Assembly (NCBI GenBank): GCA_963665115.1
Contig: OY762007.1
Coordinates: 2,976,001 to 3,040,000 of the forward strand
DNA from: an uncultured Rivularia sp.
Lineage (GTDB): Bacteria; Cyanobacteriota; Cyanobacteriia; Cyanobacteriales; Nostocaceae
Direction of reading: 5' to 3'
Length of the DNA stretch: 64,000 bases
This document shows positions 33,668 through 55,452 of the stretch, in pieces (position 1 is the stretch's first letter; each line of letters starts with the position of its first letter). Made by a program: the position numbers and the translations under genes. The notes below the pieces were generated by a model, which was not told where the DNA came from, ran no database searches, and saw nothing but the letters and a program-made list of their open reading frames with translations.

Positions 33668-33793
33668 ATCTTAAAGATGAATTTGTTATAAGCCGGAAGC
33701 AACTGTTTTGACGCTTATCTCATAAAATGCATAGTTTGTCAATTAAAATATCAAGTTTTTTTAATCATGACAATGATTTTTTATTGATGATTT

Positions 33794-33802
33794 GGGAATA
33801 CT
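33794..33802 (+). promoter_or_regulatory. J-box GGGAATACT
   Basis: Exact match, 30 nt upstream of ATG. Confidence 0.72.
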
Positions 33803-33832
33803 AAATTCGGAAGCGTTAAGGATGGAAGCAGT

Positions 33833-36800
33833 ATGATTAATATTCCCGGATATCAAATCTTAGAAGAACTCTACAACGGTTCGAGAACCCTGGTCTATCG
33901 TGCTGTTCGAGATGATAAAAAACCTGTAGTCATCAAGTTGCTCAAAAACCCCTATCCGAGTTTCAGCGAGTTGGTGCAGTTTCGCAATCAATACACCATA
34001 GCCAAAAATCTTAATTCACCCGGAATCATCCAAACTTATAGCTTGGCTAATTACCAAAATGGCTATGCATTAGTAATGGAAGATATTATGGGAATTTCCC
34101 TCAATGAATATTTTACCAACAATATAGAGACGCGATATATCGGGTTTCTACAAGAATTTCTCCAAATAGCAATTACCCTTTGCGATACCTTAGATATCCT
34201 CTATCGTCACCGAGTTATTCATAAAGATATTAAGCCTGCCAATATATTAATTAATCCTGAAACTAAACAAGTTAAGTTAATTGATTTTAGTATTGCATCT
34301 TTGTTACCGAGAGAAACCCAAACTCTTATAAATCCTAATGTTTTAGAAGGAACTTTAAGCTATATATCTCCGGAGCAAACCGGAAGAATGAATCGCGGGA
34401 TTGATTACCGTACTGATTTTTATTCTTTGGGTGTAACTTTTTACGAATTATTGACAGGAGAATTACCTTTTAAGTCAGATGATGCTATGGAGTTGGTGCA
34501 TTGTCATATTGCGAAAGCACCTCCACAGATAATAAAACCTCACCCTAACCCTCTCCTTATTAAAGAGAGGAGAAAAGAGATTCCCGCTATTTTATCCGAT
34601 ATCGTGATGAAATTGATGGCGAAAAATGCTGAAGATAGATATCAAAGTGCTTTGGGATTAAAGCATGATTTAGAATCTTGTTTAAAACAACTTCAAGACA
34701 CCGGAAAGATTGAATATTTTCAAATTGCACAAAGAGATATTTGTGACAGATTTATTATTCCTGAAAAACTTTATGGTCGAGAAACTGAAGTTGAAGAATT
34801 ATTAGCTGCATTTGACAGAATTGCTGGTTGTGAAGGCAAAGCGGAATTAATGCTGGTAGCTGGTTTTTCTGGTATTGGAAAAACTGCGCTGATTAACGAA
34901 GTTCATAAGCCAATAGTTAAGCAACGTGGTTATTTTATTCAAGGTAAATTTGACCAGTTTAATCGTAATATTCCTCTGAATGCTTTTGTGCAGGCGTTTC
35001 GAGATTTAATGAGACAATTGAGAACGGAAAGTGATGCCCAATTGTCAATTTGGAAAAACAAAATTATACAGTTTTTGGGTGATAATGCAGGGGTAATAAT
35101 TGATGTTATTCCCGAATTAGAACAAATTATTGGAGAACAACCCCCCGTACCAGAATTATCAGGTACTGCTGCTCAAAATAGATTCAATTTATTATTTGAA
35201 AAATTTATTCAAGTTTTTACGACTAAAGAACATCCTTTAGTTGTCTTTTTAGATGATTTACAGTGGGTAGATTCAGCTTCTTTAAAATTGATGCAGTTGC
35301 TGATGAGTGAATCGGAAAATGGTTATTTATTATTAATTGGTGCTTACAGAAATAACGAGGTCTTTCCGGCTCATCCGTTGATGCTGATGTTAGATGAATT
35401 TAGAAAAGCCGAAGTAACTATCAGTACGATTAATTTAACACCGTTGAGTCAAAAAAGTTTAAATCAGTTAGTTAGCGAGACTCTTAATTGTTCGCCAGTA
35501 GTTACCCAAGAATTGACAAAATTGGTGTATCAAAAGACTAAGGGCAATCCATTTTTTAGCACGCAATTTTTGAAATTACTGCATGAAGATGGTTTGATTA
35601 GATTTAATTTGGATACAGGTTTGTGGGTATGCGATATTTCTCAAGTTAAGGGTTTAGCGCTTACTGATGATGTTGTTGAATTTATGTCATTGCAGCTGCA
35701 AAAGCTACCCGAAGCAACGCAGGATGTATTGAAACTGGCAGCTTGTATCGGAAATCAATTTGATTTATCAACTTTGGCTATAGTTTGCGAAAAGTCGGAA
35801 GCTGAAACTGCTGCTAATTTGTGGAAAACTTTACAGTTAGGGTTGATTTTACCGCAAAGCGAAATTTATAAGTTTTATATTGAAAAAGAAAGACCAGAAA
35901 TTGAGTTAGAATCTCAGGTTATAAGCTATAAGTTTTTACACGATAGAGTCCAACAAGCGGCTTTTTCTTTGATTCCGGAAAAGCAAAAAAAAGCAACTCA
36001 CCTCAAAATAGGACAATTGCTGTTAAAGAATACTGACGAGGATAAATTAGAAGAAAATATCTTTGAGATAGTCAATCAATTAAATATTGGAACTGAGTTG
36101 ATTACCGAGCAATCTTCTCGAAATCAGCTAGCAAAATTAAATTTAATGGCTGGATGTAAAGCCAAGATGGCTACTGCTTATAGCGCTGCTGTTGATTATT
36201 TGACATTGGGAAGAAATTTATTAACAACTACAAGCTGGGAAGACTGCTATGAATTGACGCTAGCACTTTATGAAGAAGCAGCAGAAGCAGCCTACCTCAG
36301 CACTAACTTTGCGGAAATGAATCAATTAGTTGAGGAAATACACCCGAAAGCTAAAACACTTTTAGATCGAATCAAAGTCTACGAAATCGAAATTCAAGCG
36401 CATATGGCACAGGATAAATTCCTTACAGCTATACAGACTGGGTTGCAAGTGCTGGAACTTCTTGGTATTTATTTCCCCGAAACACCCGAATACTCTCATA
36501 TTCAAACAGGAATAGAAACAACCTTTGCTAACTTAGGAGAAAGAAATCCCCTAGATTTAGCTGACATTCCTGTCATGAACGATGTCTCTAAATTAGCAGC
36601 CCAGAGAATTATCAATTGTGTATTTCCTTGTGCTTATCAGGCTGCTCCTCAACTGTTGCCTTTGTTGGTAATGGAACAGGTTAATTTATCGATGAAATAT
36701 GGAAATTCTAATATCTCTGCTACAGGTTATGCGATGTGGGCATTAATTTTGTGCGGAGTTATCGGAGATATTGATACGGGCTATAAATTTGGTCAATTAG

Positions 36801-39259
36801 CTCTATCTTTGCTAGAACGATTCGACAGTAAAGAAACCCAAGCAGGGACAATTTTTCTGATAAATGCTGATGCTAAACATTATCGAGAGCATATTAAAGA
36901 AACATTAGCTTCATTACAATCTGCTTACTCAATTGGATTAGAAACTGGAGACTTAAAATTTGCGGCTTTAGCTATCTATATTTATGCTTACCATGCTTAT
37001 TTAAATGGCAATAATCTTTTAGAGCTTAGCCAACAAATTGCTAATTACAATCAGGTTTTGCATAAATTCCAACAGATCAATACTCTTAATCTGAGCCAAA
37101 CAGTACAGCAAACTATTCTTAACTTATTAGGTGAATCAGAAGACCCATGCCAACTAACTGGTGAAGCGTACAACCGAGAGGAAATGCTACCGCTTCAACA
37201 GCAAACTAATGATGCTACGGCTACTTTTTACGTTTATTTCAATCAAATGATTCTAAATTATTTGTTTGAAAATTATCAGCAGGCATTAGAAAACGCGATT
37301 GAAGCAGAAAAATATTTAGTTGGAGTAACGGCTAATCTTGTTGTTCCTGTTTTCTATTTTTATGACTCTTTGGTACAGCTAGCTACCCATACAAAAGCTA
37401 TAGATAAAAATCCTGAAGCTATCTTTAATAAAGTTGAGGCTAACCAGCAAAAAATGCAAAACTGGGCGCATCATGCCCCAATGAATTTTCAACATAAATA
37501 TGATTTAGTTGAAGCAGAAAAAAATCGGATTTTAGGTAAAAATTGGCAAGCAGCCGAACTATATGACTTAACAATCAAAGCATCTGAAGAACATGGTTTT
37601 ATCCAGGAAGTTGCCCTTGCAAACGAACTTGCAGCTAAATTCTACCTAGATTGGAATAAACAAAAAATAGCTCAAGTATATATACAAGAAGCTTACTATA
37701 GTTACGCTCGTTGGGGAGCTAAAGCTAAAATAGACGACTTAGAAAAACGCTATCCCGAGATACTTGCAGCAATCTTAGAAACACAAAAAATTAACTCTCA
37801 AAACCATGACACATACCTTCAAACCAATCAAACGATCCAAACAAATCGTTCTAGCAGCAGCCTTGGTGAAGCTTTAGATTTCGCCAGCATTCTTAAAGCA
37901 ACACGAGCTTTATCAAGTGAAATTCAATTAGACGAGTTAATTTCAACTTTACTGCAAATAGTGATAGAAAATGCTGGAGCAGACAAAGCTGCTTTAGTTT
38001 TACTTAAAAACAATATCTTTACTTTAGAAGCTATTGCAACTGATGATACTGTAACTTACTTCTCAATCCCTTACGAAACCAGTCCTGACATTCCTAGCTT
38101 AGTTTTGAATTACGTCAAACGCAGTTTAGAAACTGTTGTATTAGATAATGCCACAATTAAAAATTACTTTATTGCCGACGAATATTTAATACAACAGCAA
38201 CCCAAAAGTTTATTATGTTTCCCGATTTTGGATAGAGGTAAATTAACAGGTTTACTGTATTTGGAAAATAAGCTAACATTCGGTGCATTTACAGCTTCAA
38301 GATTGGAAGTAGTTAATCTTTTATGTTCTCAATCTGCTATTTCCTTAGAGAATGCTCGTTTATACCAAGAATCTCAGAATTTTGCAAAACAATTACAGCA
38401 AACTTTACAAGAATTAAAGCAAGCTCAATTACAAATGGTACAAAATGAAAAAATGGCTAGTTTGGGTAACTTAGTCGCAGGAGTAGCACACGAAGTTAAC
38501 AATCCAATTGGATTTCTTAAAGGCAGTATCAGCAATGCCGAAGAATATATTAAAGATTTATTTGCTCATCTAGAATGCTATCAAGAGAATTACCCCAGTC
38601 CAGAAGAAGAAGTGATAGAAAGTGCTGAAGAAATCGATTTAGAATTCCTCACCGAAGACTTACCAAAGCTTTTAAATTCGATGTCAGTAGCAACAGAACG
38701 CATTACCGATATTAGTAACAGTCTTCGTACTTTTTCCAGAGCAGATACATCCCAGAAAGTTGCTTGCAATCTTCACGAAGGGATTGATAGTACAATCTTG
38801 ATTTTAAAATATCGTCTCAAAGCCAACAATAAACGTCCTGCAATTGAAATTATTCAAGAGTACGGTCAATTACCGTCTATCAAGTGCTTTTTGGGACAGT
38901 TAAATCAAGTATTTATGAACATTATTGCGAATGCCATAGATGCTTTAGACATGACAAATGAAGGAAAAACATTTGCTCAAATAGAGGCAAATCCTCATAA
39001 AATAATGATTCAGACTGAATTATCAAATAAAAATAATAGAGCAATAATTAAAATAAAAGATAATGGTCCTGGAATGACTTTAGCAGTTCAAGAACGTATT
39101 TTCGATAATCTTTTTACTACTAAAGGAGTTGGTAAAGGTACGGGATTGGGTTTAGCAATAGCAAAGCAAATAGTTGAAGAAACTCACGGTGGAAAAATCA
39201 CCTGCAATTCCACACTAGGAGAAGGAACTGAATTTGTAATTGAATTACCTATCAATTAA
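33833..39259 (+). CDS. trifunctional Ser/Thr kinase - AAA ATPase - GAF - histidine kinase
   Basis: HKDIKPAN/DFS kinase motifs, GFSGIGKT P-loop, LDDLQW, helical repeats, GAF, AHEVNNP H-box and HATPase. Confidence 0.96.
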   Translation: MINIPGYQILEELYNGSRTLVYRAVRDDKKPVVIKLLKNPYPSFSELVQFRNQYTIAKNLNSPGIIQTYSLANYQNGYALVMEDIMGISLNEYFTNNIETRYIGFLQEFLQIAITLCDTLDILYRHRVIHKDIKPANILINPETKQVKLIDFSIASLLPRETQTLINPNVLEGTLSYISPEQTGRMNRGIDYRTDFYSLGVTFYELLTGELPFKSDDAMELVHCHIAKAPPQIIKPHPNPLLIKERRKEIPAILSDIVMKLMAKNAEDRYQSALGLKHDLESCLKQLQDTGKIEYFQIAQRDICDRFIIPEKLYGRETEVEELLAAFDRIAGCEGKAELMLVAGFSGIGKTALINEVHKPIVKQRGYFIQGKFDQFNRNIPLNAFVQAFRDLMRQLRTESDAQLSIWKNKIIQFLGDNAGVIIDVIPELEQIIGEQPPVPELSGTAAQNRFNLLFEKFIQVFTTKEHPLVVFLDDLQWVDSASLKLMQLLMSESENGYLLLIGAYRNNEVFPAHPLMLMLDEFRKAEVTISTINLTPLSQKSLNQLVSETLNCSPVVTQELTKLVYQKTKGNPFFSTQFLKLLHEDGLIRFNLDTGLWVCDISQVKGLALTDDVVEFMSLQLQKLPEATQDVLKLAACIGNQFDLSTLAIVCEKSEAETAANLWKTLQLGLILPQSEIYKFYIEKERPEIELESQVISYKFLHDRVQQAAFSLIPEKQKKATHLKIGQLLLKNTDEDKLEENIFEIVNQLNIGTELITEQSSRNQLAKLNLMAGCKAKMATAYSAAVDYLTLGRNLLTTTSWEDCYELTLALYEEAAEAAYLSTNFAEMNQLVEEIHPKAKTLLDRIKVYEIEIQAHMAQDKFLTAIQTGLQVLELLGIYFPETPEYSHIQTGIETTFANLGERNPLDLADIPVMNDVSKLAAQRIINCVFPCAYQAAPQLLPLLVMEQVNLSMKYGNSNISATGYAMWALILCGVIGDIDTGYKFGQLALSLLERFDSKETQAGTIFLINADAKHYREHIKETLASLQSAYSIGLETGDLKFAALAIYIYAYHAYLNGNNLLELSQQIANYNQVLHKFQQINTLNLSQTVQQTILNLLGESEDPCQLTGEAYNREEMLPLQQQTNDATATFYVYFNQMILNYLFENYQQALENAIEAEKYLVGVTANLVVPVFYFYDSLVQLATHTKAIDKNPEAIFNKVEANQQKMQNWAHHAPMNFQHKYDLVEAEKNRILGKNWQAAELYDLTIKASEEHGFIQEVALANELAAKFYLDWNKQKIAQVYIQEAYYSYARWGAKAKIDDLEKRYPEILAAILETQKINSQNHDTYLQTNQTIQTNRSSSSLGEALDFASILKATRALSSEIQLDELISTLLQIVIENAGADKAALVLLKNNIFTLEAIATDDTVTYFSIPYETSPDIPSLVLNYVKRSLETVVLDNATIKNYFIADEYLIQQQPKSLLCFPILDRGKLTGLLYLENKLTFGAFTASRLEVVNLLCSQSAISLENARLYQESQNFAKQLQQTLQELKQAQLQMVQNEKMASLGNLVAGVAHEVNNPIGFLKGSISNAEEYIKDLFAHLECYQENYPSPEEEVIESAEEIDLEFLTEDLPKLLNSMSVATERITDISNSLRTFSRADTSQKVACNLHEGIDSTILILKYRLKANNKRPAIEIIQEYGQLPSIKCFLGQLNQVFMNIIANAIDALDMTNEGKTFAQIEANPHKIMIQTELSNKNNRAIIKIKDNGPGMTLAVQERIFDNLFTTKGVGKGTGLGLAIAKQIVEETHGGKITCNSTLGEGTEFVIELPIN

Positions 39260-39331
39260 TTTTAGATTTTGGATTTTAGATTTTGGATTTTGGGTTAAAT
39301 CTACTATTTCCTATTCCCTACTCCCTAACCT

Positions 39332-39496
39332 TTAATAATCATTATCAGCCACACAAATTCCTTTACATTTAATGCCATTTGTCGCGGTGCGCTTACAGTG
39401 GGGACATAGTATCTTTTCGCTGTCTATTTCTGCATCGTTGTTTGTATTGCTATTTGCTGGCGATTTATGTTTTTCTGTCTGGGATTCCGAAGTCAT
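39332..39496 (-). CDS. small Cys-rich protein (CPHC...CxxxC)
   Basis: C-terminal CPHCKRTATNGIKCKGICVADNDY; ATG at 39496 preferred as start. Confidence 0.7.
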   Translation of the reverse strand: MTSESQTEKHKSPANSNTNNDAEIDSEKILCPHCKRTATNGIKCKGICVADNDY

Positions 39497-39554
39497 AAAT
39501 GAGAAGAGATTTTTGGGATTTTCATCATATATTTTACATTTTATAGTGGAACGC

Positions 39555-40067: not shown

Positions 40068-41652
40068 ATGCGAATTTTATTAATTTATCCTTTATTTCCA
40101 AAAACTTTTTGGTCGTATGAAAAAATTTTGGAGCTGGTAGATAAAAAAGTTTTATTACCACCTTTAGGTTTAGCTACTGTAGCTGCAATTTTGCCTCAAG
40201 AGTGGGAGTTTAAGTTAGTAGATCGTAATATTCGCTCTGTGACGGAAGCTGAATGGGAATGGGCAGATATGGTAATTTTATCTGCGATGATTGTGCAAAA
40301 AGAAGATTTATGCGATCAAATAAAAGTTGCAAAACAACACGGTAAATTAGTTGCAGTTGGTGGCCCCTTATCCAACCTCCGTACCCGCAGTAGCTCAAGA
40401 AGCTGGAGCCGATTTTCTCATCCTTGATGAAGGGGAAATTACTTTACCAATGTTTGTCGAAGCCGTACAAGCTGGTCAAACAAGTGGTATATTTCGCGCA
40501 ACAGAAAAACCAGATGTGACTTCAACACCGATTCCCCGCTTTGATTTATTGGAAAGAGATGATTACGACATGATGTCGGTGCAGTTTTCTCGCGGTTGTC
40601 CGTTTCAATGCGAATTTTGCGATATTATCGTACTTTACGGACGCAAACCCCGTACCAAAACCCCAGCACAGCTTTTAGCCGAACTTGATTGTTTGTATGA
40701 ATTGGGTTGGCGTGGCGGTATATTCATGGTGGATGATAACTTTATTGGCAATAAACGCAACGTTAAGCTGTTGCTCAAAGAGTTAAAAGAATGGATGAAA
40801 GCACACGAATATCCATTCCGCTTTGATACCGAAGCCTCAGTAGATTTAGCACAAGATCCAGAATTGATGGAATTGATGGTTGAATGTGGTTTTGCTGCGG
40901 TATTTTTGGGTATTGAGACACCAGATGAAGATAGTTTGCAGCTAACAAAGAAATTTCAAAACACCCGCAACTCCCTGGTTGAATCCGTACAAGATATTAT
41001 CAAAGCGGGTTTGCGTCCGATGGCTGGTTTTATTATTGGCTTCGATGGAGAAAAATCCGGTGCTGGCGATCGCATTGTCCGGTTTGCGGAACAAGCAGCG
41101 ATTCCTTCTACTACTTTTGCGATGTTACAAGCATTACCCAACACAGCATTGTGGCATCGTTTAGAGAAAGAAGGCAGAATGCGCGAATCTCAGGACGGAA
41201 ACATTAACCAAACTACGTTAATGAATTTTATTCCCACTCGTCCTTTAGAGGATATTGGCAGGGAATATATTGAAGCATTTTGTGCTTTGTATGACCCCAT
41301 CGCTTATTTAGACCGTACCTATCGCTGCTTTTTAATGATGGGTAAACCGAGTTGGAAAGCACCAGCTAAAAAGACCGAATGGGTTGTTGTCAAAGCACTT
41401 GCAACTGTTATTTTGCGACAAGGAATTAAACGCGAAACTCGCTGGAAATTCTGGCATCATTTATTCGGTATTCTCAAGCATAATCCCGCAGTTTTTGAAC
41501 ATTATTTATCTTCTTGCGCTCACAATGAGCATTTTCTGGAATACCGTCAAATAGTCCGCGAGCAAATCGAATCCCAACTTGAAGAGTATTTGGCTCAAGG
41601 TGCAGAAAAGCCTTATGTATTTGTGAAGAAAGCTGAAGCCGTTAACGCTTAA
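40068..41652 (+). CDS. B12-binding radical SAM protein (DUF4070 type), frameshifted at about 40365
   Basis: LPPLGL B12-binding N-terminus and CPFQCEFC motif. Removing one C from CCCC at 40364-40367 restores VGGPYPT. Confidence 0.92.
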
Positions 41653-41854: not shown

Positions 41855-42009
41855 TAGCAGTTTGTGGCTAAGTTATTGATTAATAAGTAAAGCATTAATT
41901 ATGCAATCTAAAAAGCAATTGTTGGCAACTAAATAATAATATGAATATAGCCTTTCCCTGTAGTTTGGATAAAAAAATATGTCTTAATAATAATTATTGT
42001 AAAGATTTT

Positions 42010-42018
42010 GGGAATACT
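42010..42018 (+). promoter_or_regulatory. J-box GGGAATACT
   Basis: Exact match, 29 nt upstream of ATG. Confidence 0.72.
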
Positions 42019-42047
42019 AAATCTAGAAGTATCAGGAATTCAGTGGT

Positions 42048-45000
42048 ATGGTTGACATTGTTGGATATTCCATCAAAGAAGAACCTATAGATTTTGCGGC
42101 TATCCTCAAAGCCTCTCAAGCACTTTTAGATATTGTTCAATTCGACGAGCTACTGTCCCATTTTACTCAGGTTATCGTACAAAATTCGGGAGCCGATTGC
42201 TGTTCCTTAATACTTCCCGATCGTAATGGGATATGGCACCTTGAAACCATTGCCACACCTGAGATAACAGAACTTCGCTCTGAACACCTTGAAGGCAATC
42301 CCAACCTACCTGTTAAATTAATTGAGTATGTCAAAAACACCCAACAAGAGGTGATGATTGACAATCTCAACACCCATTTACCTGTCATTGACAAGTATCT
42401 CAGCCAGCAAAAACCTTATAGCCTCCTGTGTTTACCTATTATAAATAAAGGGCATTTGTTCGGGATTGTGTATTTGAGTAACCACTCAACTAGTGCTGTG
42501 TTTACCAGCGATCGCATCCTTATACTCAACTTGCTTTGTACCCAGGCAGCAATCTCACTCGACAATTTACGGCTTTATCGGGAGCGCGATCGCGCACAAA
42601 TCAGCTTAAAGCAAAAAGAACATAACGTTGATGCTCGCTATCGTGCTTTGATAGATGGGTCATATGATAACCGCAAACAATTCGAGCGCGAACGACAGCA
42701 ATTAATTCAAGAACTATCCGATTTCAAATTTGCCCTCGATCAATCAGCTATAGTCGCTATCACTGATACCGCAGGAGCTATTACCTATGTCAATAACCGC
42801 TTCTGCGATATTTCCGGGTATTCCTACGATGAGTTGATTGGCAATACCCATCGGATTGTAAATTCTGGCTATCATTCCCTCGCTTTTTTTCAAGACTTGT
42901 GGAGTACCGTCATTAGTGGCAATATCTGGCGAGGTCAAATTTGCAATCGGAATAAGAATGGTAATCTGTATTGGGTAGAAAGTACCCTTATCCCATTTTT
43001 AGACGAGCAAGGGAGACCTTTTCAGTATCTAGCGATTCGCTTTGATATTACCGGACGCAAACAAGCCGAACAAACAATTTCTCAACAGGTAGAACGAGAA
43101 AAACTACTTAGAGAAATTACCCAGCGAATTCGACAATCCCTAAATCTTCAGACCATTTTCGACACCGCTTGTAAAGAAATCCGTCAAGTGATTCAAGCCG
43201 ATCGAGTTGGTATTTTCAAGTTTTATCCGGAATGTAACTTTGATGATGGCGAATTTGTAGCTGAATCGGTTCTAGAAGGATTTTCCTCAGTGGTTGCGAT
43301 CCGAGTCCACGACTACTGCTTTGGCAACAATTTTTCATCCCTTTATTCTAAAGGCAGATTCTATGCCGTTGATGATATCTATAACAACGGGCTAACAGGC
43401 TGTCACAGTGACATCTTAAGTCAGTTTGAAGTACGCGCTAATCTAGTGATGCCGTTACTTTGCGGTGAGCAGTTATGGGGTTTGCTATGCATTCATCAAT
43501 GTGGAACAACTCGTAAATGGCAGCAGTCGGAAATTGACCTGACGCAGCAATTAGCCAATCAACTAGCAATCGGTATTCAGCAAGCTAGCTTCTACGATCA
43601 AACACAGTGTGAACTGATGGTACGGCAGCAAACCGAAGCCAGAATTGCCATACAATTGCGACGACAGCAAGCTTTAGGGGCGATTATTCAACAAATTCGT
43701 GAATCATTAGACATTGACGAAATTCTCTCAACAGTCACCAAGCAAGTCAAAGAAATAATGCACTGCGATCGCGTCATTGTATTTCGACTTTTTGCTAATG
43801 GCGAAAGTGGAATAGTTGAAGAAGCCGTATCCGGTGAGTTTCCTGCGCTTAATGGTCGTAATTGGGACAATGAAGTATGGTCGCCGGAAATACTTGATTG
43901 TTACTGGCAAGGTAAGCCTCGTATCGTACCCGATGTGGTAGACGATATCTGGACAAAATGCCTAGTGGAATATTCAATTGAAGGTAAAATTAAATCCAAA
44001 ATTGTTGCGCCGATCTTGCAAGAAATACATACTAGCGAAAATCATCGTTGGGTTGCTCCAGGGGAAAACAATAAGCTTTGGGGGGTTTTAGTTGTCCATT
44101 CATGTGGAGCAAAACGATTATGGCAGGAATCTGAAGCGCAACTCTTACAACAAATTGCCAACCAACTCGCGATTGCCATTCAACAAGCTAAGCTATTCGA
44201 TCGGTTGCAGCAAGAACTAACCGAACGACAACAAGCTCAACAGCAGCTGACCGAACGCAACCAGCAACTTGCCGTATCAAATGAAGAACTTGCCCGCGCG
44301 ACTCGCCTTAAGGATGAGTTCCTTGCTAACATGAGCCATGAACTTCGTACCCCCCTTAACGCCATATTAGGAATGACCGAGGGGTTACAGGAGAAAGTCT
44401 TTGGGCAAATCAACGACCGACAACTTAAAGCATTACAAACCATTGAGGGCAGTGGTTCGCATTTGCTCGAACTAATTAACGATATCTTGGATGTCGCCAA
44501 AATTGAATCAGGTCAAATCGAACTTGATATCATCCCTATTAGTGTCGCTCCATTGTGCCAGTCAAGTTTAGCTTTTATTAAACGACAAGCTCTGAAAAAA
44601 CGCATTCATCTACAAACTAATTTACCCCACGAAGTACCCGATTTATTGATTGATGAACGACGCATCCGCCAGGTGTTGATCAACCTGCTCAACAATGCCG
44701 TCAAATTTACCCCAGATGGAGGAAGGATCACTTTAGAGGTCAGCCTTCAGCAGCACTTGACCGAAGCAGATTGCACCGATAACCCATACCAAAATTTCCT
44801 CCGAATTGCAGTCATTGATACAGGCATCGGTATTGCACTAGAAGATACAAAAAAACTATTTCAGCCCTTCGTCCAAATCGATAGTGCATTGAATCGTCAA
44901 TATACAGGAACCGGCTTAGGGCTTACCTTAGTGAAACGCACCGTAGAACTTCATGGTGGTCAAGTGAGGGTAACTAGTAAAATTGGAGTTGGAAGTTGCT

Positions 45001-45482
45001 TTACGGTTGACCTGCCTTGCGCCGCTACTGTATCATCTTTTCCTCAAATCAAAACCCAGCCAGAACTGTGTACCGAAACGAACTACCCAGTTGAGGAAGC
45101 ATCCCACTTAATTTTACTAGCTGAGGACAACGAAGCCAATGTAAGTACTGTTTCAAGCTACCTCAGAGCTAAAGGCTATCGTCTGCTCTTGGCTAAAAAC
45201 GGACAAGAGGCAGTTGCTCTAGCCCAATCTGAAGCGCCTGAGTTAATTTTGATGGATATTCAAATGCCTGGTATTGATGGGATAGAAGCAATGCAGCAAA
45301 TTCGCCGCAATCCAAACTTAGCCAATTTGCCCATAATTGCCCTGACGGCTTTAGCAATGGAAGGCGATCGCGAACGTTGTCTGGCTGCCGGAGCTAATGA
45401 TTACCTCAGCAAACCCGTCAAGTTAAAGCAACTGGCATTGACGATCCAACAGTTGTTAGCAACTCGGGAGGATACCTCATGA
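42048..45482 (+). CDS. hybrid photosensor kinase GAF-PAS-CBCR GAF-CBCR GAF-HisKA-HATPase-REC
   Basis: DYCF and GCH in the second GAF; Trp-rich WDNEVWS...IWTKCLVEY in the third [14 protein letters not shown]-box; LMDIQMP receiver domain. Confidence 0.93.
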   Translation: MVDIVGYSIKEEPIDFAAILKASQALLDIVQFDELLSHFTQVIVQNSGADCCSLILPDRNGIWHLETIATPEITELRSEHLEGNPNLPVKLIEYVKNTQQEVMIDNLNTHLPVIDKYLSQQKPYSLLCLPIINKGHLFGIVYLSNHSTSAVFTSDRILILNLLCTQAAISLDNLRLYRERDRAQISLKQKEHNVDARYRALIDGSYDNRKQFERERQQLIQELSDFKFALDQSAIVAITDTAGAITYVNNRFCDISGYSYDELIGNTHRIVNSGYHSLAFFQDLWSTVISGNIWRGQICNRNKNGNLYWVESTLIPFLDEQGRPFQYLAIRFDITGRKQAEQTISQQVEREKLLREITQRIRQSLNLQTIFDTACKEIRQVIQADRVGIFKFYPECNFDDGEFVAESVLEGFSSVVAIRVHDYCFGNNFSSLYSKGRFYAVDDIYNNGLTGCHSDILSQFEVRANLVMPLLCGEQLWGLLCIHQCGTTRKWQQSEIDLTQQLANQLAIGIQQASFYDQTQCELMVRQQTEARIAIQLRRQQALGAIIQQIRESLDIDEILSTVTKQVKEIMHCDRVIVFRLFANGESGIVEEAVSGEFPALNGRNWDNEVWSPEILDCYWQGKPRIVPDVVDDIWTKCLVEYSIEGKIKSKIVAPILQEIHTSENHRWVAPGENNKLWGVLVVHSCGAKRLWQESEAQLLQQIANQLAIAIQQAKLFDRLQQELTERQQAQQQLTERNQQLAVSNEELARATRLKDEFLANMSHELRTPLNAILGMTEGLQEKVFGQINDRQLKALQTIEGSGSHLLELINDILDVAKIESGQIELDIIPISVAPLCQSSLAFIKRQALKKRIHLQTNLPHEVPDLLIDERRIRQVLINLLNNAVKFTPDGGRITLEVSLQQHLTEADCTDNPYQNFLRIAVIDTGIGIALEDTKKLFQPFVQIDSALNRQYTGTGLGLTLVKRTVELHGGQVRVTSKIGVGSCFTVDLPCAATVSSFPQIKTQPELCTETNYPVEEASHLILLAEDNEANVSTVSSYLRAKGYRLLLAKNGQEAVALAQSEAPELILMDIQMPGIDGIEAMQQIRRNPNLANLPIIALTALAMEGDRERCLAAGANDYLSKPVKLKQLALTIQQLLATREDTS

Positions 45483-45507: not shown

Positions 45508-45637
45508 CAGGACTTACGCAAAAATAACGTAACTGCGTCATTACTCATGAGAGGCGACGTAATCTCCCCAGGCGCTGGGAAAGATCCCCTACATTCCGTT
45601 CCGGTCGCAATGACAAATCTTCGTTGCGTAAGTCCTG
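45508..45637. mobile_element. 130-bp MITE with 14-bp terminal inverted repeats and 5-bp TSD
   Basis: CAGGACTTACGCAA...TTGCGTAAGTCCTG, flanked by ACAAT at 45503-45507 and 45638-45642. Confidence 0.85.
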
Positions 45638-45683
45638 ACAATATAAAGATTTTGACCTCGAACGCGATTTTTTTTAATGATTT

Positions 45684-45692
45684 GGGAACACT
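45684..45692 (+). promoter_or_regulatory. J-box-like motif GGGAACACT
   Basis: Lies within a decayed copy of the kinase promoter/leader cassette. Confidence 0.62.
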
Positions 45693-45935
45693 AAATGCAG
45701 AATTATTGAGGATATAAAGCATCGTTAGTATCACCAGATACCACATCCACAAAAAATCTGCAAGGGTTCAAGAATATAGCTATTTTTTGCTTTGGGAAAA
45801 AGCAACTAATTTTAATTTAATTTTCATATTTAGTACTTATTTTTGTTTATCGCCAAGACATAAAATTAATTTCGCAAATCAACAAAATTCAGACTATTTT
45901 TATTACCTAATAAGATTAAGGAGATATTTAAAACC

Positions 45936-46452
45936 ATGCAGAGCCAGCCACAAGGGCAATCGCCTCCACTGATATCTTCATCTTCAAAGCTCCCTCTACA
46001 AGATGATATGTTGCAACGGCAATTATTGCAGCTAGTAATGGATAACCTGCCAGAATGCATCTTTTGGAAAGATATAAATGGAGTTTACTTGGGCTGCAAC
46101 AGCAAATTTGCTGAAATTGCAGGGGTTGGCAGCCCTGAAAATATCGTTGGCAAAAATGATTACGAGCTACCCTGGAAAAAAAAAGAAACTGATTTTTTTC
46201 GTTCAAGACAATGGTTTAGAACTTGTTATACCTCCATCTGAGGATTTACAAATGTTATTCGATCTAGCCCAAGATGGCTGATTAATCAAGTTAGCAAAAA
46301 CAGCGGAAAAAATTGCACAAAACAATAACCTTTATCTACCCTTTGCCCAGAAAATTTTACAGATGACAAGGAAATTTGATACAGAAAAAATAGAGGAATT
46401 ACTTAATAAATATCTTCACTCCGAGCAATCTTTCCAATCTCGAAATCCATGA
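45936..46452 (+). pseudogene. internally deleted hybrid kinase remnant (partial PAS fused to C-terminal helical domain)
   Basis: PAS start (DNLPECIFWKD) joined out of frame at about 46200 to ELVIPPSEDL...YLPFAQKI, with in-frame TGA at 46279. The final stop overlaps the ATG at 46449. Confidence 0.8.
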
Positions 46453-48122
46453 CTAAGGAATTAATAGAATCAACAGGGCTGATCTTAATTGTGGACGATA
46501 TTACGGTTAATCTAGATGTACTATCTGAAACACTTAGTACAGCAGGTTATGACGTGGCGATCGCCACCAATGGAAAACGAGCTTTGAAACAGCTAGAGCG
46601 GAAATTGCCGGATCTAATTTTGCTGGACATAAAAATGTCTGAAATGAATGGTTTTGAAGTCTGCCAAAAAATCAAAGCTAATCCTACAACTTGCAATATT
46701 CCGATCATTTTTATCACGGCTTTAGCCGATCTAGATAGTAAGATTAAAGGCTTTGAACTAGGAGCATTAGACTATATTACTAAGCCATTCCAAGAGCAGG
46801 AAGTCCTCGCTAGGATCAAAACACATTTACAGTTGAGAAAGCTGACTCAAAACTTAGAGGAGCAAGTAGCTCTTAAAGTATTTTCATTGGAACAAGCCAA
46901 GCAAGCTGCCGAACAAGCAAATATCGCCAAAAGCCAATTCCTTGCTAACATGAGTCACGAGCTTCGCACTCCCCTCAACGCCATTTTAGGCATGACTGAG
47001 GGTCTACAAGAGCAGGTTTTTGGCAGCACCAACGACCAACAATTTAAAGCATTGCAAACTATTGAACGCAGTGCTTCCCATTTACTTGAACTGATTAACG
47101 ACATTCTGGATCTCTCAAAAATAGAATTGGCTCACATAGAGCTAAATCCTAGCTGTACTGACATAGCAGAACTTTGTCAAACGAGTTTAGCCTTCATTAA
47201 ACAACAAGCCCGCTCGAAAGACATCGAGCTAAAAACAAAGCTACAACCCAATTTGGCCAACTTACTTGTGGATGAAAGACGCATCCGCCAAGTTTTAATT
47301 AATCTGCTTACCAATGCTATTAAGTTCACCCCGGATCGAGGATGCATTACCTTAGAAGTAAACCTTCTTCCCCGTGGTACCTTTTCAGATGCTGTTTCCT
47401 CATCCCAAAATTACTTACGAATTGCTGTTAGAGATACTGGCATTGGTATTAATACCGAACATCTCGAAAAATTGTTTAAGCCCTTCGTGCAAATTGATAG
47501 CGCTCTGAATCGGAAATATGAAGGGACGGGTTTGGGACTTTCCTTGGTAAAACGCATCGTCGAACTTCATGGGGGACGGGTAGGAGTTATGAGTGAGGTC
47601 GGAGTAGGAAGCTGCTTCACAGTCGATCTACTCTATAGTGCTGCGACATCATCAGAGTGTGAATTAAAAATTCACTCAGAAATTAGCATCGAACCCAGCG
47701 AGCAAAAGCAAACAGCATCTCCTTTAATTTTGCTAGCTGAAGACAACGAGGCCAATATCGCAACAATTTCGGGCTACCTTAAAGCCAAAGGCTACCAAAT
47801 AGTTTTGGCGAAAAACGGGCAGGAGGCTATTGATTTGACCTACTCCAGAACGCCCGATTTGATTGTAATGGATATTCAAATGCCAGGAATAGATGGCATA
47901 GAAGCAATGCAGCAAATCCGTCAAAATCGAAATTTAGCGAATTTGCCTATCATAGCTCTTACAGCTTTAGCAATGAAAAGCGATGGGCAAAATCCCGGCG
48001 TAGCCGATTGCGAACGTTGTCTTACAGTCGGAGCCAATGAATACCTTAATAAACCCGTCAAGCTCAAGCAATTGACATTCATAATCCAAAAATTGTTAGA
48101 CGCTCAGGAGTATACCCTATGA
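46449..48122 (+). CDS. hybrid kinase REC-HisKA-HATPase-REC
   Basis: Two receiver domains flanking the [11 protein letters not shown]-box and HATPase; core paralogous to 42048. Confidence 0.94.
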
Positions 48123-49225
48123 AAAAAGCATCCGTTTTAATCATTGATGACGAACCCGATAATTTTGATGTAATCGAAACTCTACTAAGCGTTGAGGTTA
48201 GTAGAAATTATTCAGGGGAAAATTATGATTATCAACTGCACTATGCTGCCGACGGGAGCAACGCGATCGCATCTCTCGACACCTTTAAACCCGATATTAT
48301 TTTGCTTGATGTGATGATGCCAGGAATAGATGGTATCGAAGTCTGCGGGCGTATTAAAGCAATGCCCCAGTGGCGATCGGTGCCAATCATTACGGTCACG
48401 GCTCTTAACAGTAAAGAAGACCTAGCTAACTGTCTAAGATCGGGTGCCGATGACTTTATCAGTAAGCCTATTAATGGTGCTGAACTGCGTGCAAGAGTAA
48501 ACTCCATGCTGCGAATCAAGCATCAGTATGACGACCTGCAAGCCCTGCTCAAGCTACGGGAAGACATGGTTAACATGGTAGTTCACGACCTACGAAATCC
48601 TCTTACTGATATATTGCTGGGTGTGGAGATTCTCCAAAGTGGGAAGTATCCTGCAAACAAGCACCAGCACAAATTAACTCGAATCTATTCCTCAGCACAA
48701 GCACTACAGGTATTGATTGATGATTTGCTGACTATGGCACTGCTCAAATCTGGTAAAGTTTCTCCCAATTGCATGGAAGTTTGCATATGTGAACTTATAC
48801 AGTCTGCCATCTCAAACTTTGAAACAATCGCAGCTAAAAAAAATCAAGTACTGGTGAGTCAATTACCAAAAGAATCTAGTCAGAAAGTCTTTGTTGATGC
48901 AACGATGATGCACCGAACCTTGGATAACCTCTTATCGAATGCAATTAAGTTTTCCCCAGACAGCAGCCAAATTATAGTTAAGGTTGAATTTACCACATCT
49001 GGTCATTATAAAATCCAAGTTATTGATTCCGGGCCGGGTGTTGCCGATGCATTCCAACAAAAGATTTTTGATCAATACGAAGTTGGAAATTCAATGTCCA
49101 ATGTCTCTCAAATAGGGTTGGGTTTAGCATTTTGCAAAATGGTAGTTGAAGCACATGGAGGAGAAATTTGTGTTAAAAAAAATCAACCCCAAGGAGCCAT
49201 TTTTGAGATTGTTTTGGCTGCATAG
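48119..49225 (+). CDS. hybrid response regulator / histidine kinase (REC-HisKA-HATPase)
   Basis: LLDVMMP receiver, VHDLRNPL H-box and [12 protein letters not shown] overlap with the upstream gene. Confidence 0.94.
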
Positions 49226-49281
49226 TAGTATTGACTGTTTCATAAATCTAGAAACTGACAAATTTTTGAGGGGTTGCAACA

Positions 49282-49585
49282 ATGTCTGACTTTTCTATCT
49301 TGGTTATTGATGATAGACAAACCAATAATTACAATTAGTACTTCACTCCAAGATAACTAAAATATATTAATTAGTATCAAAGATAATGGCGTTGGAATTA
49401 GTAAATCCATTTTAAATAAGATATTTGAACCATTTTTTACTACAAAACCTGTCGGCGGCGGTACGGGTTTAGGATTATCAACTAGTTATTCAATTGTCCT
49501 AAAAAAAGATCGGGGTAATTAGAGTTGCATCTCTGCTCCGAGAGAGGGGACAGAATTTTTAATTGAACTGCCTATTCAACCATAA
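49282..49585 (+). pseudogene. chimeric remnant: REC start fused to decayed HATPase 3' end
   Basis: ATG MSDFSILVIDD followed from 49315 by a close copy of 54932-55199 containing stops. Confidence 0.8.
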
Positions 49586-49688
49586 TAAGAATTACAACAA
49601 GTTCAAACTCTCTTATCAGTTCAGAACCTGATGGAATAATCAGCAAAGTAATACTTCCAACTTAAAATACAATTTTAAGGTCAGATTT

Positions 49689-49697
49689 GGGAATACT
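49689..49697 (+). promoter_or_regulatory. J-box GGGAATACT
   Basis: Exact match, 35 nt upstream of ATG. Confidence 0.72.
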
Positions 49698-49732
49698 AAA
49701 TTCGGAAGTATTTAGACTGGAATCAACGCAGC

Positions 49733-52700
49733 ATGGTTAGCATCTCTGGATATCACATATTAGAACAACTTTACAATGGTTCGAGAACCCTGATATATCG
49801 TGCTATTCGTGAAAATGACCGAAAACCTGTAGTTATCAAATTGCTCAAAAATTCATTAGCGGATTTCAGCGAGTTGGTACAGTTTCGCAACCAATACACC
49901 ATCACTAAAAATATACATTCACCTTACATTATTCAATCCTACAGCTTGGAAGATTATCGCAATACTTGTGCATTGGTAATGGAAGACATGGGGGGAATTT
50001 CTCTTAAAGAATATTTCAATAATGTAGAGACGTTATATATAACGTCTCAAAATACAACGTCTCAATACATAACGTCTCAAAATAATCTCCTTGAGACACC
50101 CTCCGCTAAATCGTTTCTACAAGAATTTCTTCAAATAGCCATTTTCCTGTGCGATGCCTTAGATACTTTATATCACTATAGAATAATTCATAAAGATATT
50201 AAACCCGCCAACATTTTAATTAATCCAAATACCAAACAAGTTAAATTAAGTGACTTTAGTATTGCTTCTTTACTTCCAAAAGAAACTCAAATTTTCATCG
50301 CTCCTTCGGTGTTGGAAGGAACTTTAAGCTATATATCTCCAGAGCAAACTGGAAGAATGAATCGCGGAATTGATTATCGTACTGATTTATATTCATTGGG
50401 TGTTACTTTTTACGAATTACTAACGGGAGAATTACCATTTAAATCGAAAGATGCGATGGAGTTGGTGCATTGTCATATTGCGAAAGCTCCTCCAAGTATG
50501 AAAAAACTTCACTCTAACTCTCTGCTTATTAAGGAAAGGGAAAAAGAAATCCCTCAAGTTTTATCAGATATCGTCATCAAGTTGATGGCGAAAAATGCGG
50601 AAGATAGATATCAAAGTGCTTTGGGATTAAAGTATGATTTAGAACTTTGTTTAAAGCAAATAAAAGAAGTTGAAAAGATAGAAAGTTTTGAAATTGCTCA
50701 AAGAGATATTTGTAATAGATTTATTATCTCTGAAAAACTCTACGGTAGAGAAACTGAAGTTCACAAATTATTAGCTGCATTTGATAGAGTATCAAATGGC
50801 AATAGTGAATTAATACTTGTTGCAGGTTTTTCTGGTATTGGCAAAACGGCCTTAGTTAATGAGGTTCATAAACCAATAGTTAAGCAACGCGGTTATTTTA
50901 TTAAAGGTAAATTTGACCAGTATAATCGTAATATTCCTCTTTCTGCTTTTGTGCAAGCGTTTAAAGATTTAATTGGACAATTATTGACTGAAAGCGACAG
51001 TCAACTGTCAATCTGGAAAAATCTCATTTTACAGGCTTTAGGAGATAACGGACAAGTAATTATTGATGTGATTCCCGAATTGGAAAATATTATTGGTAAA
51101 CAACCATACGCACCGGAATTATCGGGAGATGCGGCACAAAATAGATTTAATTTATTATTTCAAAAGTTTATTCAAGTTTTTACTACCAAAGAACATCCTT
51201 TAGTTATTTTTTTAGATGATTTGCAGTGGGCTGATTCGGCATCTTTGAAATTGATGCAGTTGCTTTTATCTGAATCAAAAACTGGTTATTTATTAATGAT
51301 TGGTGCTTACCGAGATAATGAAGTGTTTCCCGCTCATCCTTTGATGTTGACGCTAAATGAAGCATCTAAAATCGGTACAACAATTAATACAATTATTCTG
51401 AAACCTTTAAATAAAGCAAGTTTAACTGAATTAGTAGCAGATACTCTTTCATGTTCTAAGCATTTAGCAAAACCTTTGACTAATATCATCTATCAAAAAA
51501 CTAAAGGAAGTCCGTTTTTTGCAACTCAGTTTTTGAAAGCTTTACATCATGATGGATTAATTAACTTTGATAATCAAGCTGGATATTGGCAATGCAATAT
51601 TAATAAAGTCCGCTCGGCAGCGCTAACAGATGATGTAGTTGAATTCACAAGCATTCAATTACGCAAGCTACCAGAATCAACTCAAGATGTTTTGAAATTA
51701 GCTGCTTGTATTGGCAATCAATTTGATTTAGAAACATTAGCAATTCTTTCCGAAAAATCAAAAGAAGAAACAGCAGCTTGTTTATGGAAAGCTTTGCAAA
51801 AAGGTTTGATTTTACCGCAAAGTGATGTTTATAAGTTTTTTATTCAGGCTGAAAATCAAGAAATTAATTCGCAGACTGCTAAAGTTGCAAAATATAAGTT
51901 TTTGCATGACAGAATTCAGCAAGCTGCTTATTCTTTGATTCCAGAAGAAAAAAAACAAAAGACTCATTGGCAAATTGGACAAGCGCTATTAAGAATAATT
52001 TCAGAAGAACAGCTTGAAGAAATTATTTTTGAAGTAGTTAATCAACTTAACAATGGTTTGAAATTTTGCGAGCAAGATGCAACAAATAAAGAGAAAATCG
52101 CTCGACTAAACTTACAAGCAGGACTAAAAGCTAAGGAATCAACTGCATATGCTGCTGCTGTTAGCTATTTCAGTCAAGGAATTAGTTTGCTGGCTTGCGA
52201 CTTCTGGGAACATCAATACAAATTGAGCTTTGAACTGTATCGACAATTAGCAGAAGCAGAATATCTCAATGGTAACTTTGAACGAGCATAAATTTTAGTT
52301 GATGACATTCTTAAAAAAGCAAAGTCAGATATAGAAAAAGCCGACCTCTATAATCTTTTAGTTGTACAATTTACATTAGAAGCAAAATACGATCGAGCAA
52401 CTACAGTTGGCAAACAAGGACTTAGTTTATTAGGTATCAACATACCTATAGATAACTTGCAATCTTCTATCGATGAACAATTGCAAAAAATTATAGACGG
52501 ATTTAAACAGCAAGAAATTGTCTCTATTTTGCACAAACCAGTAATGAGTCAAGAAGACAAAAAAATTGCAATTAAACTTTTAATAAACCTCGATCCACCA
52601 ACATATATTACTGGGAATTTGAATCTGTATATATTCATTTCTTTAAAAGCAGTTTTACTTTCCTTAGAATATGGTAATGCTGCGGAATCTGCGAAAGCCT

Positions 52701-55199
52701 ATGCAAACTATGGATTAATTTTGGGTACAGTTTTAGGAGATTATCAAACTGGCTATGAATTTGGCAAACTTGCTTATAACCTGAGTGAAATCTTCCAAAA
52801 CCAGGGGCAACTCTGTAAAGCAAGTTTGCTATTGAGTGGTTGGTTAACAAGCTGGAGTCAACCCATCGATGATGCCGAAAAAGTTGCTCTTAGTGGGTAT
52901 CAAGCAGGTTTAGAATCTGGAGAAATTCAATTTGCAGGTTACAATCTGTTTGCTTTGGGCTGCATTCTGCATTTTAAAGGTACTAAACTACAGCAAATTC
53001 AAGAAGGAATCAGTAATTGGTTGCCTTTTGTAGAGAAAACCAAAAATCAGCTCGCACTTGAAATATTATCGGCGCTTCAGTTTCAATGTCTCTAAATTGT
53101 TAGGGGAAAATAGCCCTAACATTAAATTGACTCACTACCAAAGCCCAATAGCAGTTGCAATCGATTGTATCTACCAGTGTCAAAAATATTACTTACTAAA
53201 CCAGTCCGAAGCATCTTTAAATCATGCCTTAGAAGCAGAAAAATTGACATTAGCGATCGCCGGTTTTGTGACTTCTGGAGAATATCATTTTTATGTTCCT
53301 TTAGTGTTTCTCAATCGCTTACCTTTAATGCAGAAAGAGCAACAACAATCATACTGGGAGAAAGTAAAGACACATCAACAAAAACTGAAAATTTGGACTG
53401 AACAATGCCCGCAAAACTTCCAACATAAATACTTTCTATTACAAGCAGAAATCAACCGAGTTAATGGCAATTTTGCAAATGCTATTGAATATTATGACAA
53501 AGCTATCTCTGAGGCTTCGGCTAACAAATACATTCATGAACTTGCCCTTTCTAACGAATTAGCAGCTAAATTCTACCTGGATTGGGACAAAGAAAAATTA
53601 GCCCAAATATATATGCAAGAAGCTTACTATTGCTACACAGAATGGGGAAGTAAAGCAAAAACTGACGATTTAGAAAAACGCTATTTTCAACTGCTTGCAC
53701 CCATATTTAAAAACTTTGATAAATCGGAATTGATCGATCAAACTATTCAAATAACTAGTTCGAGTAGCAGCAGTATTTCCGAAAATCTCGATTTCGCTAG
53801 CATTCTTAAAGCAACACAAGCTCTATCAAGTGAAATTAAATTAGAGCAGTTAATTTCCAAGTTAATGCAAGTGGTGATGGAAAATGCTGGAGCCAAAAAA
53901 GCCGCTTTGATTTTGCTCGACGATGATAATCTGATGCTCAAAGCAGTAGCTGCTACCTCCTCTAGTATAAAGCTGCTCAATTTACGGTACCAAGACAGCG
54001 AAGATATCCCTGCTACATTAATTAACTATGTCAAAAGAAGTTTAAAAACAATCGTATTAGATAATGCAACACAAAACCCGGATTTTATCGCCGATTCATA
54101 TTTAATGGAGCAACAACCGAAAAGTTTACTTTGTATGCCGATTTTGAATCAAGGTAAATTAATCGGATTATTATATTTAGAAAATAACTTGACGATTGGT
54201 GCATTTACCCAAAATCGTGTAGACACTCTTAATTTGCTCTGCACCCAAACAGCTATTTCTTTGGAAAACGCTCAACTTTACAGCAAATTAGCAAACTATT
54301 CTCATACTTTAGAACAAAAAGTAGAACAGCGAACTCAAGAAGTAACCCAAAAAGCAACTCAATTAGAATCAACTTTAAAAGAATTACAACGCACTCAAGC
54401 CCAATTAATTCAAACTGAAAAAATGTCCGGTTTGGGACAACTTGTGGCTGGAATTGCTCACGAAATCAATAATCCCATCGGCTTTATTTACGGTAATCTC
54501 ACCCCAGCTTCTGAATATACTTTAGATTTAATTGAACTAATTAATTTATATCAAAAGCTTTATCCTCAATCTCTACCTGAAATTGCAGACAAAGTTGACG
54601 ATATAGACTTAGATTATTTAATTGAGGATTTACCAAAACTACTTGATTCAATGAAAATAGGTGCAAAGCGGATTCGTGAAATTGTTGTGTCATTACGAAA
54701 CTTTTCTCGCTTAGATGAAGCCGAACTAAAACCAGTAGATATTTACTCTGGGATTGATAGCACTCTGTTAATTTTGCAGCATCAACTCAACTCAAGTAGT
54801 AAATATCCAGAAATTGAAGTAATTAAAAACTATAGTCAACTTCCAGAAACTAATTGCTATGCTTCTCAATTAAATCAAGTGTTTATAAATATTATCGGTA
54901 ACGCAATTCATGCTTTGCGAGAAAAGCAGGAAGACAAACCAATAATTACAATTAGCACTTCGCTTAAAGATGAGCAAAATATATTAATTAGTATCAGAGA
55001 TAATGGTGTTGGAATTAGTCAATCCATTTTAAATAAGATATTCGACCCATTTTTTACTACAAAACCAGTCGGTAGCGGTACGGGTTTGGGATTATCAACA
55101 AGCTATTCAATTGTCGTAAAAAAACATCGGGGTAATTTGAGTTGCATTTCTGCTCCGGGAGAGGGAACAGAATTTTTGATTGAATTACCTATCAAATAA
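49733..55199 (+). pseudogene. second trifunctional Ser/Thr kinase-AAA-GAF-histidine kinase, disrupted in this sequence
   Basis: Colinear with 33833; in-frame TAA at 52289-52291 and a +1 frameshift near TTT at 53081-53083. Confidence 0.85.
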
Positions 55200-55286
55200 T
55201 TAGATAAAATCTAATGTTTCCGATCATTTTTGGTTCTAAGAACGATAAAACTATTTTTATATATGTCTATTTTTTTGGTCATTTGT

Positions 55287-55295
55287 GGGAATACT
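55287..55295 (+). promoter_or_regulatory. J-box GGGAATACT
   Basis: Exact match within a decayed kinase leader cassette, 157 nt upstream of ATG 55453. Confidence 0.68.
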
Positions 55296-55452
55296 AAATC
55301 CAGAAGCATTAGGAATTTAGCAGTATGGTTTTCTTTATATATCGCATTTTAGAAAAAAGTATCAAGCTTCTAGAAACATTATCTATCGTCCCCGATAAGC
55401 GGACATTTGCATTGCTTACAACTTTCAATAAATGCAAAGCCGGTAACTGGGT

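Follow-up and report, generated by a model that had tools for sequence, protein, structure and literature searches.

The stretch of DNA analyzed here, called the window below, is 64,000 nucleotides (nt) from an uncultured Rivularia sp. (contig OY762007.1 of assembly GCA_963665115.1, positions 2,976,001 to 3,040,000). It carries genes for HstK-type dual kinases and five short homologous blocks that begin with the same promoter-like box. We consider it probable that these blocks are the 5' ends of duplicated HstK genes with a SigJ-type promoter, the J-Box, that kinase bodies were deleted in place, and that the promoters left behind would still be driving the signalling genes downstream. A preliminary description of this DNA had reported the five blocks and read them as a portable cassette. 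The features that matter for the argument are as follows, each with the basis of its assignment.

33793..33806, plus strand: J-Box of block 1, with the core GGGAATACT at 33794-33802 (motif in PMC6495340).
33833..39259, plus strand: intact HstK-type dual kinase, 1808 amino acids (aa), with Pkinase, AAA_16, GAF, HisKA and HATPase_c (open reading frame and Pfam).
42009..42022, plus strand: J-Box of block 2 (motif scan).
42048..45482, plus strand: chimeric hybrid histidine kinase, 1144 aa (domain scan, sequence comparison).
45683..45815, plus strand: block 3, with J-Box (GGGAACACT), leader and decayed HstK codons (box-free profile, alignment).
45936..46318, plus strand: PAS hybrid kinase relic, a PAS fragment (101-aa open reading frame) joined to a hybrid-kinase tail (repeat family D13, domain scan).
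46449..49225, plus strand: REC-HK-REC (557 aa) and REC-HK (368 aa) genes with a 4-nt overlap, HK being histidine kinase (open reading frames, domain scan).
49316..49573, plus strand: degenerate 3' tail of another HstK gene, directly before block 4 (90% identical to 54932-55192).
49688..49701, plus strand: J-Box of block 4 (motif scan).
49733..55199, plus strand: second HstK gene, broken (domain scan, contigs of sequencing runs).
55286..55402, plus strand: block 5, with J-Box, leader, ATG at 55325 and decayed HstK codons (box-free profile, alignment).
55453..57372, plus strand: HAMP histidine kinase, 639 aa (domain scan; operon partner of intact HstK in relatives).
57444..57478, plus strand: sixth site, HstK-type upstream sequence and J-Box, 171 nt before 57641 (upstream profile).
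57641..60466, plus strand: dCache-HAMP-HK-REC hybrid kinase behind the sixth site (open reading frame, domain scan).

The definition of cbSTKIII/HstK is an N-terminal Ser/Thr kinase, at least one GAF and a C-terminal histidine kinase (PMC2176072). By its sequence, 33833 is a member: Pfam places Pkinase at 7-278 and GAF at 1366-1505, followed by HisKA and HATPase_c, and the translation has the KD-type catalytic loop HKDIKP and FRNQY with Gln in subdomain III. It resembles Anabaena Alr2258 and Alr0709-Alr0710 in the N-terminal kinase with HKD and that Gln, in the GAF and in the C-terminal histidine kinase, and adjacent duplicates and domain shuffling are already on record for this family. The difference is that the accessible part of that source describes neither collapsed copies that keep their promoter nor a GAF-first chimera born from one (PMC2176072).

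Full kinases had been claimed at both 33833 and 49733. The former is intact, and the latter stops at codon 853 with an in-frame TAA (52289-52291) that lies within contigs of runs X1, X2 and X3, with zero substitutions there. A frameshift in the same gene near 53081 is less secure and is missing in two of the four runs. At 53081 and in the C-run at 55390-55393 (3, 4 or 5 letters), the assembly and runs X1-X4 differ by one base in length, so reading frames at both places are insecure. In relatives (written as G numbers, with G000 for the genome of the window itself), the interval between the MOSC gene and the MerR/DnaJ/GntR genes holds from 0 to 2 intact kinases plus relics. One more distant observation is a tandem run of at least 10 HstK-type genes or gene ends in G155 (C1:2830000-2890000), where no J-Box-type site was seen directly before the genes whose starts are in view.

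The sequence TGGGAAYACTAAAT occurs exactly at 33793, 42009, 45683, 49688 and 55286, each time on the plus strand. Allowing up to 2 mismatches, the window has 8 matches where 1.6 are expected, and none of 100 shuffles got to 8. Across the whole genome (8.69 Mb, from a filamentous cyanobacterium) the 14-nt box has 7 exact copies, six of them at HstK-derived starts, while its 9-nt core GGGAAYACT has 126 sites. The core reads GGGAATACT at blocks 1, 2, 4 and 5 and at 57470, and GGGAACACT at block 3, where run X4 has GGGAATACT instead. A sigma-factor motif with 126 sites in the genome is no proof of homology on its own, so we built a DNA profile on 26 intact kinase genes from relatives, using their leaders and first codons and leaving the box out; five more intact 5' ends with a variant box were not used. 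At E<1e-3 this profile found, in the genome of the window, the kinase genes and exactly three stubs, namely blocks 2, 3 and 5 (genome-wide E of 4.5e-6, 1.2e-4 and 1.8e-4). The box is intact in all three, although the profile could not see it, and no box-less stub was found in this genome with the profile. The homology of the blocks reaches past the box. All five blocks of the preliminary description are real. It had named non-significant similarity outside the 9-bp box as what would refute its reading, and the similarity there is significant genome-wide for blocks 2, 3 and 5. The starts it gave at 33833, 42048, 49733 and 55325 and the ATC at 45721 agree with the sequence, and what it overlooked is the sixth related site at 57470.

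The box matches, by consensus and by its sense position near a start codon, the J-Box GGGaAtacT, known from Nostoc punctiforme as the extended -10 element of SigJ-dependent promoters (PMC6495340). Data Set S2 of that paper gives the MEME motifs TGGGWAWWCTAAAC and TGGGAATWMTAAA, which span nearly the whole 14-mer, and lists the J-Box on members of the same kinase family (Npun_R2272, F2670, F3778 and F3830). The promoter of Npun_R2272, annotated as a 'multi-kinase', has the same box, a similar leader and a co-regulated REC-HK neighbour (PMC6495340). From the rows of Data Set S1A we calculated ratios of wild type to sigJ mutant, and 8 of 13 multi-kinase genes reach at least 10 at 12 h (our own arithmetic on PMC6495340). 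Here, a J-Box-like site precedes all 31 intact kinase 5' ends from relatives (26 with GGGAAYACT and 5 with GGGAAYAAT, at 26 loci), and 9 of 9 kinase starts in the genome of the window have a GGG-led J-like site within 75 nt, as judged by eye. On these sequences a J-Box-like site precedes nearly all HstK-type dual kinases examined. The boxes are in sense orientation and lie 39-45 nt from the kinase start. The pilB gene of this genome also has a J-Box about 45 nt upstream. Two sigma factors of the SigF family (NF005644) are over the cut-off in this genome and are candidates for SigJ. Our sites share with those of N. punctiforme the GGGaAtacT core, the TAAA behind it and the short distance to the start codon, and differ in that they were probably copied by gene duplication and left by deletion (PMC6495340).

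For block 5, relatives keep the kinase or parts of it. In G032 an intact 1835-aa kinase with the same box ends 2 nt before the orthologue of 55453, and in G017 a 106-aa kinase stub is followed by a degenerate kinase 3' tail that reaches the same start codon. The 5' ends of these two group at 97/94 in a tree of 28 blocks, in which 15 of 25 inner branches are open and the bootstrap has not settled. Because G032 has the full kinase before 55453 and G017 has both kinase ends, we read block 5 as a collapse in place, and the earlier proposal, that the gene was duplicated and copies then lost the kinase body but not the promoter, is supported by these two genomes. In G031, G011 and G014 the 55453 orthologue also lies within about 30 nt behind an intact kinase. 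The preliminary description had deletion capture unrelated genes, which does not hold at block 5, as the gene was already there behind the intact kinase in these four relatives. At 13 loci outside the genus with homologues of 55453, we found no HstK within 1.5 kb and no strict J-Box within 350 nt, and four of the 13 carry looser GGG sites. Since these homologues have no kinase or strict J-Box upstream, 55453 was likely recruited, but at a time when the kinase ahead of it was still intact: the gene would have joined the kinase operon first, and the kinase would have been deleted later.

Two further observations concern this gene. About 38 nt within 55396-55452, just before the 55453 start, are identical in G000 and G007, where the adjacent stub is heavily diverged, and this stretch is unique in the genome of the window. 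The 55453 kinase is without the receiver domain of its G017 and G032 orthologues (761-763 aa), and the G007, G031 and G011 proteins are also shorter.

Block 3 has lost its start codon, as had been claimed: ATG is replaced by ATC at 45721, and contigs of runs X1 and X4 carry the same ATC. The block is 77% identical over 130 nt to the block 1 promoter of G005, including 35 of the 41 positions upstream of the box. The region of the relic at 45936 differs among the data, with 2034 letters in run X5 compared to 708 in the window. We think the two genes at 46449..49225 are the likely targets of block 3. Sites with box and stub stand before the same HK-REC and REC-HK genes in G017, G007, G001 and G003, with differing sensor parts directly behind the stub. 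At 45509-45638, 45 nt upstream of block 3, there is a dispersed element, about 130 nt long, that has inverted ends (CAGGACTTACGCA...TGCGTAAGTCCTG). This genome contains 6 long copies of it, and copies are numerous across the genus.

At block 2, the reading frame passes from about 12 start codons of the kinase straight into a kinase GAF, with about 1330 codons gone. The in-frame fusion to a photoreceptor kinase that had been proposed is real, and what had been missed is that the first joined part is the kinase's own GAF. Behind the start codons, 42048 consists of an HstK-type GAF (aa 12-190), PAS, two GAFs, HK and REC. The head GAF is 43% identical to that of 33833 and 59-60% to those of two other kinases in this genome, and its best matches are mostly in kinase-sized frames (151 genomes). 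CBS/PAS multisensor hybrid kinases match the rear part with their back half, at 73-80% in the GAF pair, and those genes often have a 48119-like gene behind them. Pfam finds no Pkinase or AAA domain, and by its sequence 42048 is derived from HstK and is not a member of HstK/cbSTKIII. The first of the rear GAFs (aa 366-510) contains HDYCFG and GCHSD, which we take to be the DXCF motif and the canonical bilin-binding Cys. It fits a DXCF cyanobacteriochrome GAF and is predicted to be cyanobacteriochrome-like; the G017 orthologue has lost the D of this motif.

The chimera occurs with the same promoter in four genomes, G000, G017, G034 and, from another genus, G238, and its four 5' ends form one clade with support of 96/98, which points to a single origin. 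With a dN/dS of 0.147 against G017, it is conserved and, on this sequence measure, under purifying selection. Its closest named full-length homologues are from Nostocales. The closest donor genes of the rear part have GGGAAYAAT 32-39 nt upstream in 8 of 8 cases, and the strict J-Box core was found in none of the 22 upstream regions examined from non-fusion genes. Regulatory rewiring at block 2 is weakened as an explanation by the GGGAAYAAT sites, and because the donor family has its own J-Box variant, regulation may not have changed there; capture by deletion, as first described, is for the same reason doubtful at this block. In G039 an HstK is followed after 37 nt by a more distant hybrid kinase and then a 48119-like gene, which is the adjacency needed for such a fusion.

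Further possibilities were tried and rejected. A plain deletion within a longer HstK with the same photoreceptor tail was dropped because no such protein was found: the search for longer proteins gave mostly CBS/PAS hybrids, and the few with kinase domains (P0084, P0090, P0108 and P0115) had 42-58% identity and partial coverage of the query. Candidates for independent GAF-first fusions in other families turned out to be full kinases or contig-edge fragments (G053 and G109) or to start inside the kinase body (P0178 and P0212). Block 2 is similar to the deletion-born gene fusions of PMC12803068 in joining distant gene parts in one frame and in its purifying selection, and differs from them in requiring two joins.

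In the stubs the box has survived while the kinase decayed. Pairwise comparison of the stubs of blocks 3 and 5 gives 8-9 of 9 identical positions in the core, 15/28 to 24/27 in the leader and 35/74 to 54/70 in the codons, for which an unrelated pair gives 38/78. When the blocks are aligned as the preliminary description proposed, conservation is thus concentrated on the box and the codons are near random identity. Its idea of selection on the box only is right about the focus and slightly too narrow in that the leader and the start codons of block 2 are also kept. Twelve stub sites have a signalling gene on the same strand behind them, and all 12 have an intact core (block 2 in G000, G017, G034 and G238; block 3 in G000, G017, G007, G001 and G003; block 5 in G000, G007 and G017), although these are related genomes with about 3-4 independent events, which makes this a pattern rather than a statistical test. 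Seven sites have lost the kinase and have no such gene behind, and one of them keeps the box (G009). The box is split by an insertion in G016, reads GGGAATACC in G001 and was not found in G004, G032, G031 and G011, these last four being called by pattern and by eye. Two whole-kinase deletions are joined to the last kinase codons, from the box in G009 (L024 7931) and from the first codons in G001 (L013 reverse, 1757).

The sixth site, at 57470, ranks first of the 126 J-Box sites on a profile of the 25 nt upstream (shuffle p 5e-5), and its score is matched by a fraction of 1.3e-5 among 25-mers sampled from the genome. Leader and kinase codons are missing from this site, which G007 shares. We regard it as the best candidate for reuse of the promoter by itself, the evidence being 25 AT-rich bases. 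Another J-Box (TGGGAACACTAAGT), at 13940-13953 before a PAS-domain gene, has no kinase-derived leader and appears to be an independent SigJ-type promoter.

We propose the following course of events. As seen from sequence, J-Box-led kinase genes with histidine-kinase partners form an array that expands and contracts. Comparison among the genomes shows several routes of kinase loss. Block 4 has a nonsense mutation, block 5 of G017 an internal deletion that spared both ends, and blocks 3 and 5 a near-total deletion. At block 2 the deletion is in frame and extends to the GAF of the kinase itself, and a second join would have linked this GAF to the rear half of a hybrid kinase of the CBS/PAS/cyanobacteriochrome type. 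Selection would retain the box where a signalling gene on the same strand depends on it. By analogy with the N. punctiforme data, SigJ RNA polymerase would transcribe these genes during the development of hormogonia (motile filaments).

Several points weigh against this account. The first gene behind block 3, at 45936, is itself a relic, and a full-length kinase at the block 3 position, which the preliminary description had wanted looked for in sister genomes and which G032 provides for block 5, is absent in every genome examined. The tree does not join block 3 of G000 to the stubs of G007, G001 and G003, and the shorter block 5 stubs of G000 and G007 join the G032/G017 pair weakly (54/85). 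No un-deleted parent of 42048 was found in 301 genomes of the family. G009 has an intact box after loss of the whole kinase, and few independent events lie behind the 12 sites. SigJ dependence is carried over from N. punctiforme, where the other five multi-kinases have ratios below 10-fold (5.2, 3.8, 0.9, 0.6 and 0.3; PMC6495340).

The portable cassette of the preliminary description would be a promoter and leader copied alone and inserted before unrelated genes, bringing them under SigJ control. The 57470 site fits this with its HstK-type upstream sequence, its box and its first rank without kinase codons, as do the variable gene directly behind block 3, the four different neighbourhoods of the block 2 gene with its promoter, and the full kinase never seen at block 3. 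However, stubs occur at this locus only in 8.7 Mb, relics of kinase head and tail flank the deletion in G017 and G001, the block 5 gene stands behind an intact kinase in G032, G031, G011 and G014, and the promoter of block 2 travels with the entire gene. We consider a portable cassette highly unlikely, and the blocks are likely collapsed operons. A mobile cassette was rejected on the same grounds of dispersal (no unrelated loci) and in-place relics: for a miniature inverted-repeat transposable element or small dispersed repeat we would expect dispersed copies at unrelated loci, and the box-free profile found none at E<1e-3. Neither terminal inverted repeats nor target-site duplications were seen in the alignments or among the 25 longest inverted repeats, in the absence of a dedicated test. 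It is also improbable, if a little less so, that the stubs are neutral leftovers whose boxes were kept by chance or by gene conversion with intact copies, with other promoters serving the genes downstream. The box is short and the sites were first noticed because it was intact, the G009 box has no obvious dependent gene, 45936 is a relic, and a weak sigma-70-like site at chance level lies 58 nt before 46449. Yet sites found by synteny or by the box-free profile keep the box next to codons of near random identity, an insertion splits the box in G016, its near-invariant T is changed in G001, whose next gene lies on the opposite strand, and a scan of the plus strand from block 5 to 55453 found no sigma-70-like site (sigma-70 and terminator scans being at chance level overall).

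A third alternative concerns only block 5, whose ATG and short frame may have been kept as a translational coupler that brings ribosomes to 55453, a gene whose translation would earlier have been linked to the stop codon of the kinase. In the assembly (43 codons), in the X2-X4 reading (45 codons) and in G007 (33 codons), the stub frame opened by the kinase ATG ends no further than about 10 nt from the 55453 start. A stop-free run of such length occurs in 5% of shuffles, though, and the frame has 24 codons in run X1, the G017 stub ends far upstream, and block 3 has no ATG. We find a coupler unlikely. It would add to, and not replace, deletion with retention of the promoter, which we continue to prefer.

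The remaining observations are about other parts of the window. A B12-binding radical SAM (DUF4070) gene at 40068-41652 appears split by an extra base at 40364, which we take as an assembly error because the base is missing from all four runs and relatives have a single, unsplit 527-aa gene. The DnaJ-like open reading frame at 61021-61893 (290 aa, TTG start) has a shorter N-terminus than its 312-325-aa orthologues in relatives, possibly another assembly indel. A DUF-like membrane protein gene on the minus strand ends in a long Gly run (CCACCT repeats) at 28707-28805.

Neither the promoter nor the kinase family is new, tandem duplication and shuffling within that family are already known, and deletion-born fusions are a described process (PMC12803068). 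The locus thus adds neither a mobile element nor a regulatory motif to those known; it is a well-documented birth-and-death variant of a known promoter and gene family. It is similar to promoter capture by duplication or deletion, the apparent subject of PMC5526668, PMC11111574 and PMC6614815, in that a rearrangement puts a promoter beside another gene, and differs in that the block 5 gene was already in the operon and the block 2 donor family has a J-Box variant. Our literature search, with most subscription journals outside it, found no report of promoter-retaining HstK relics or of the chimera. It also found no report linking HstK to hormogonia or multi-kinases to SigJ, although the link is present in published supplementary data (PMC6495340).

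For the biology of these cyanobacteria, naming the box as the SigJ J-Box would tie the long-known and poorly understood HstK dual kinases to hormogonium development, by analogy with N. punctiforme. We tentatively suggest, as a possibility somewhat short of even, that the hormogonium regulon uses HstK operons as a recruiting station: unrelated sensor-kinase genes would land behind a J-Box-led kinase, the 5.5-kb kinase would be deleted and the newcomer would stay under SigJ through the promoter it inherited (55453, probably 57641 and 46449), with one such event making a conserved light-sensing hybrid kinase out of kinase and photoreceptor parts. The locus presents a natural series, graded in extent, of genes that died while their promoters survived, and it includes a chimeric photoreceptor kinase under purifying selection that is apparently undescribed. 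With the series and the chimera one can test directly how new members enter a developmental sigma regulon.

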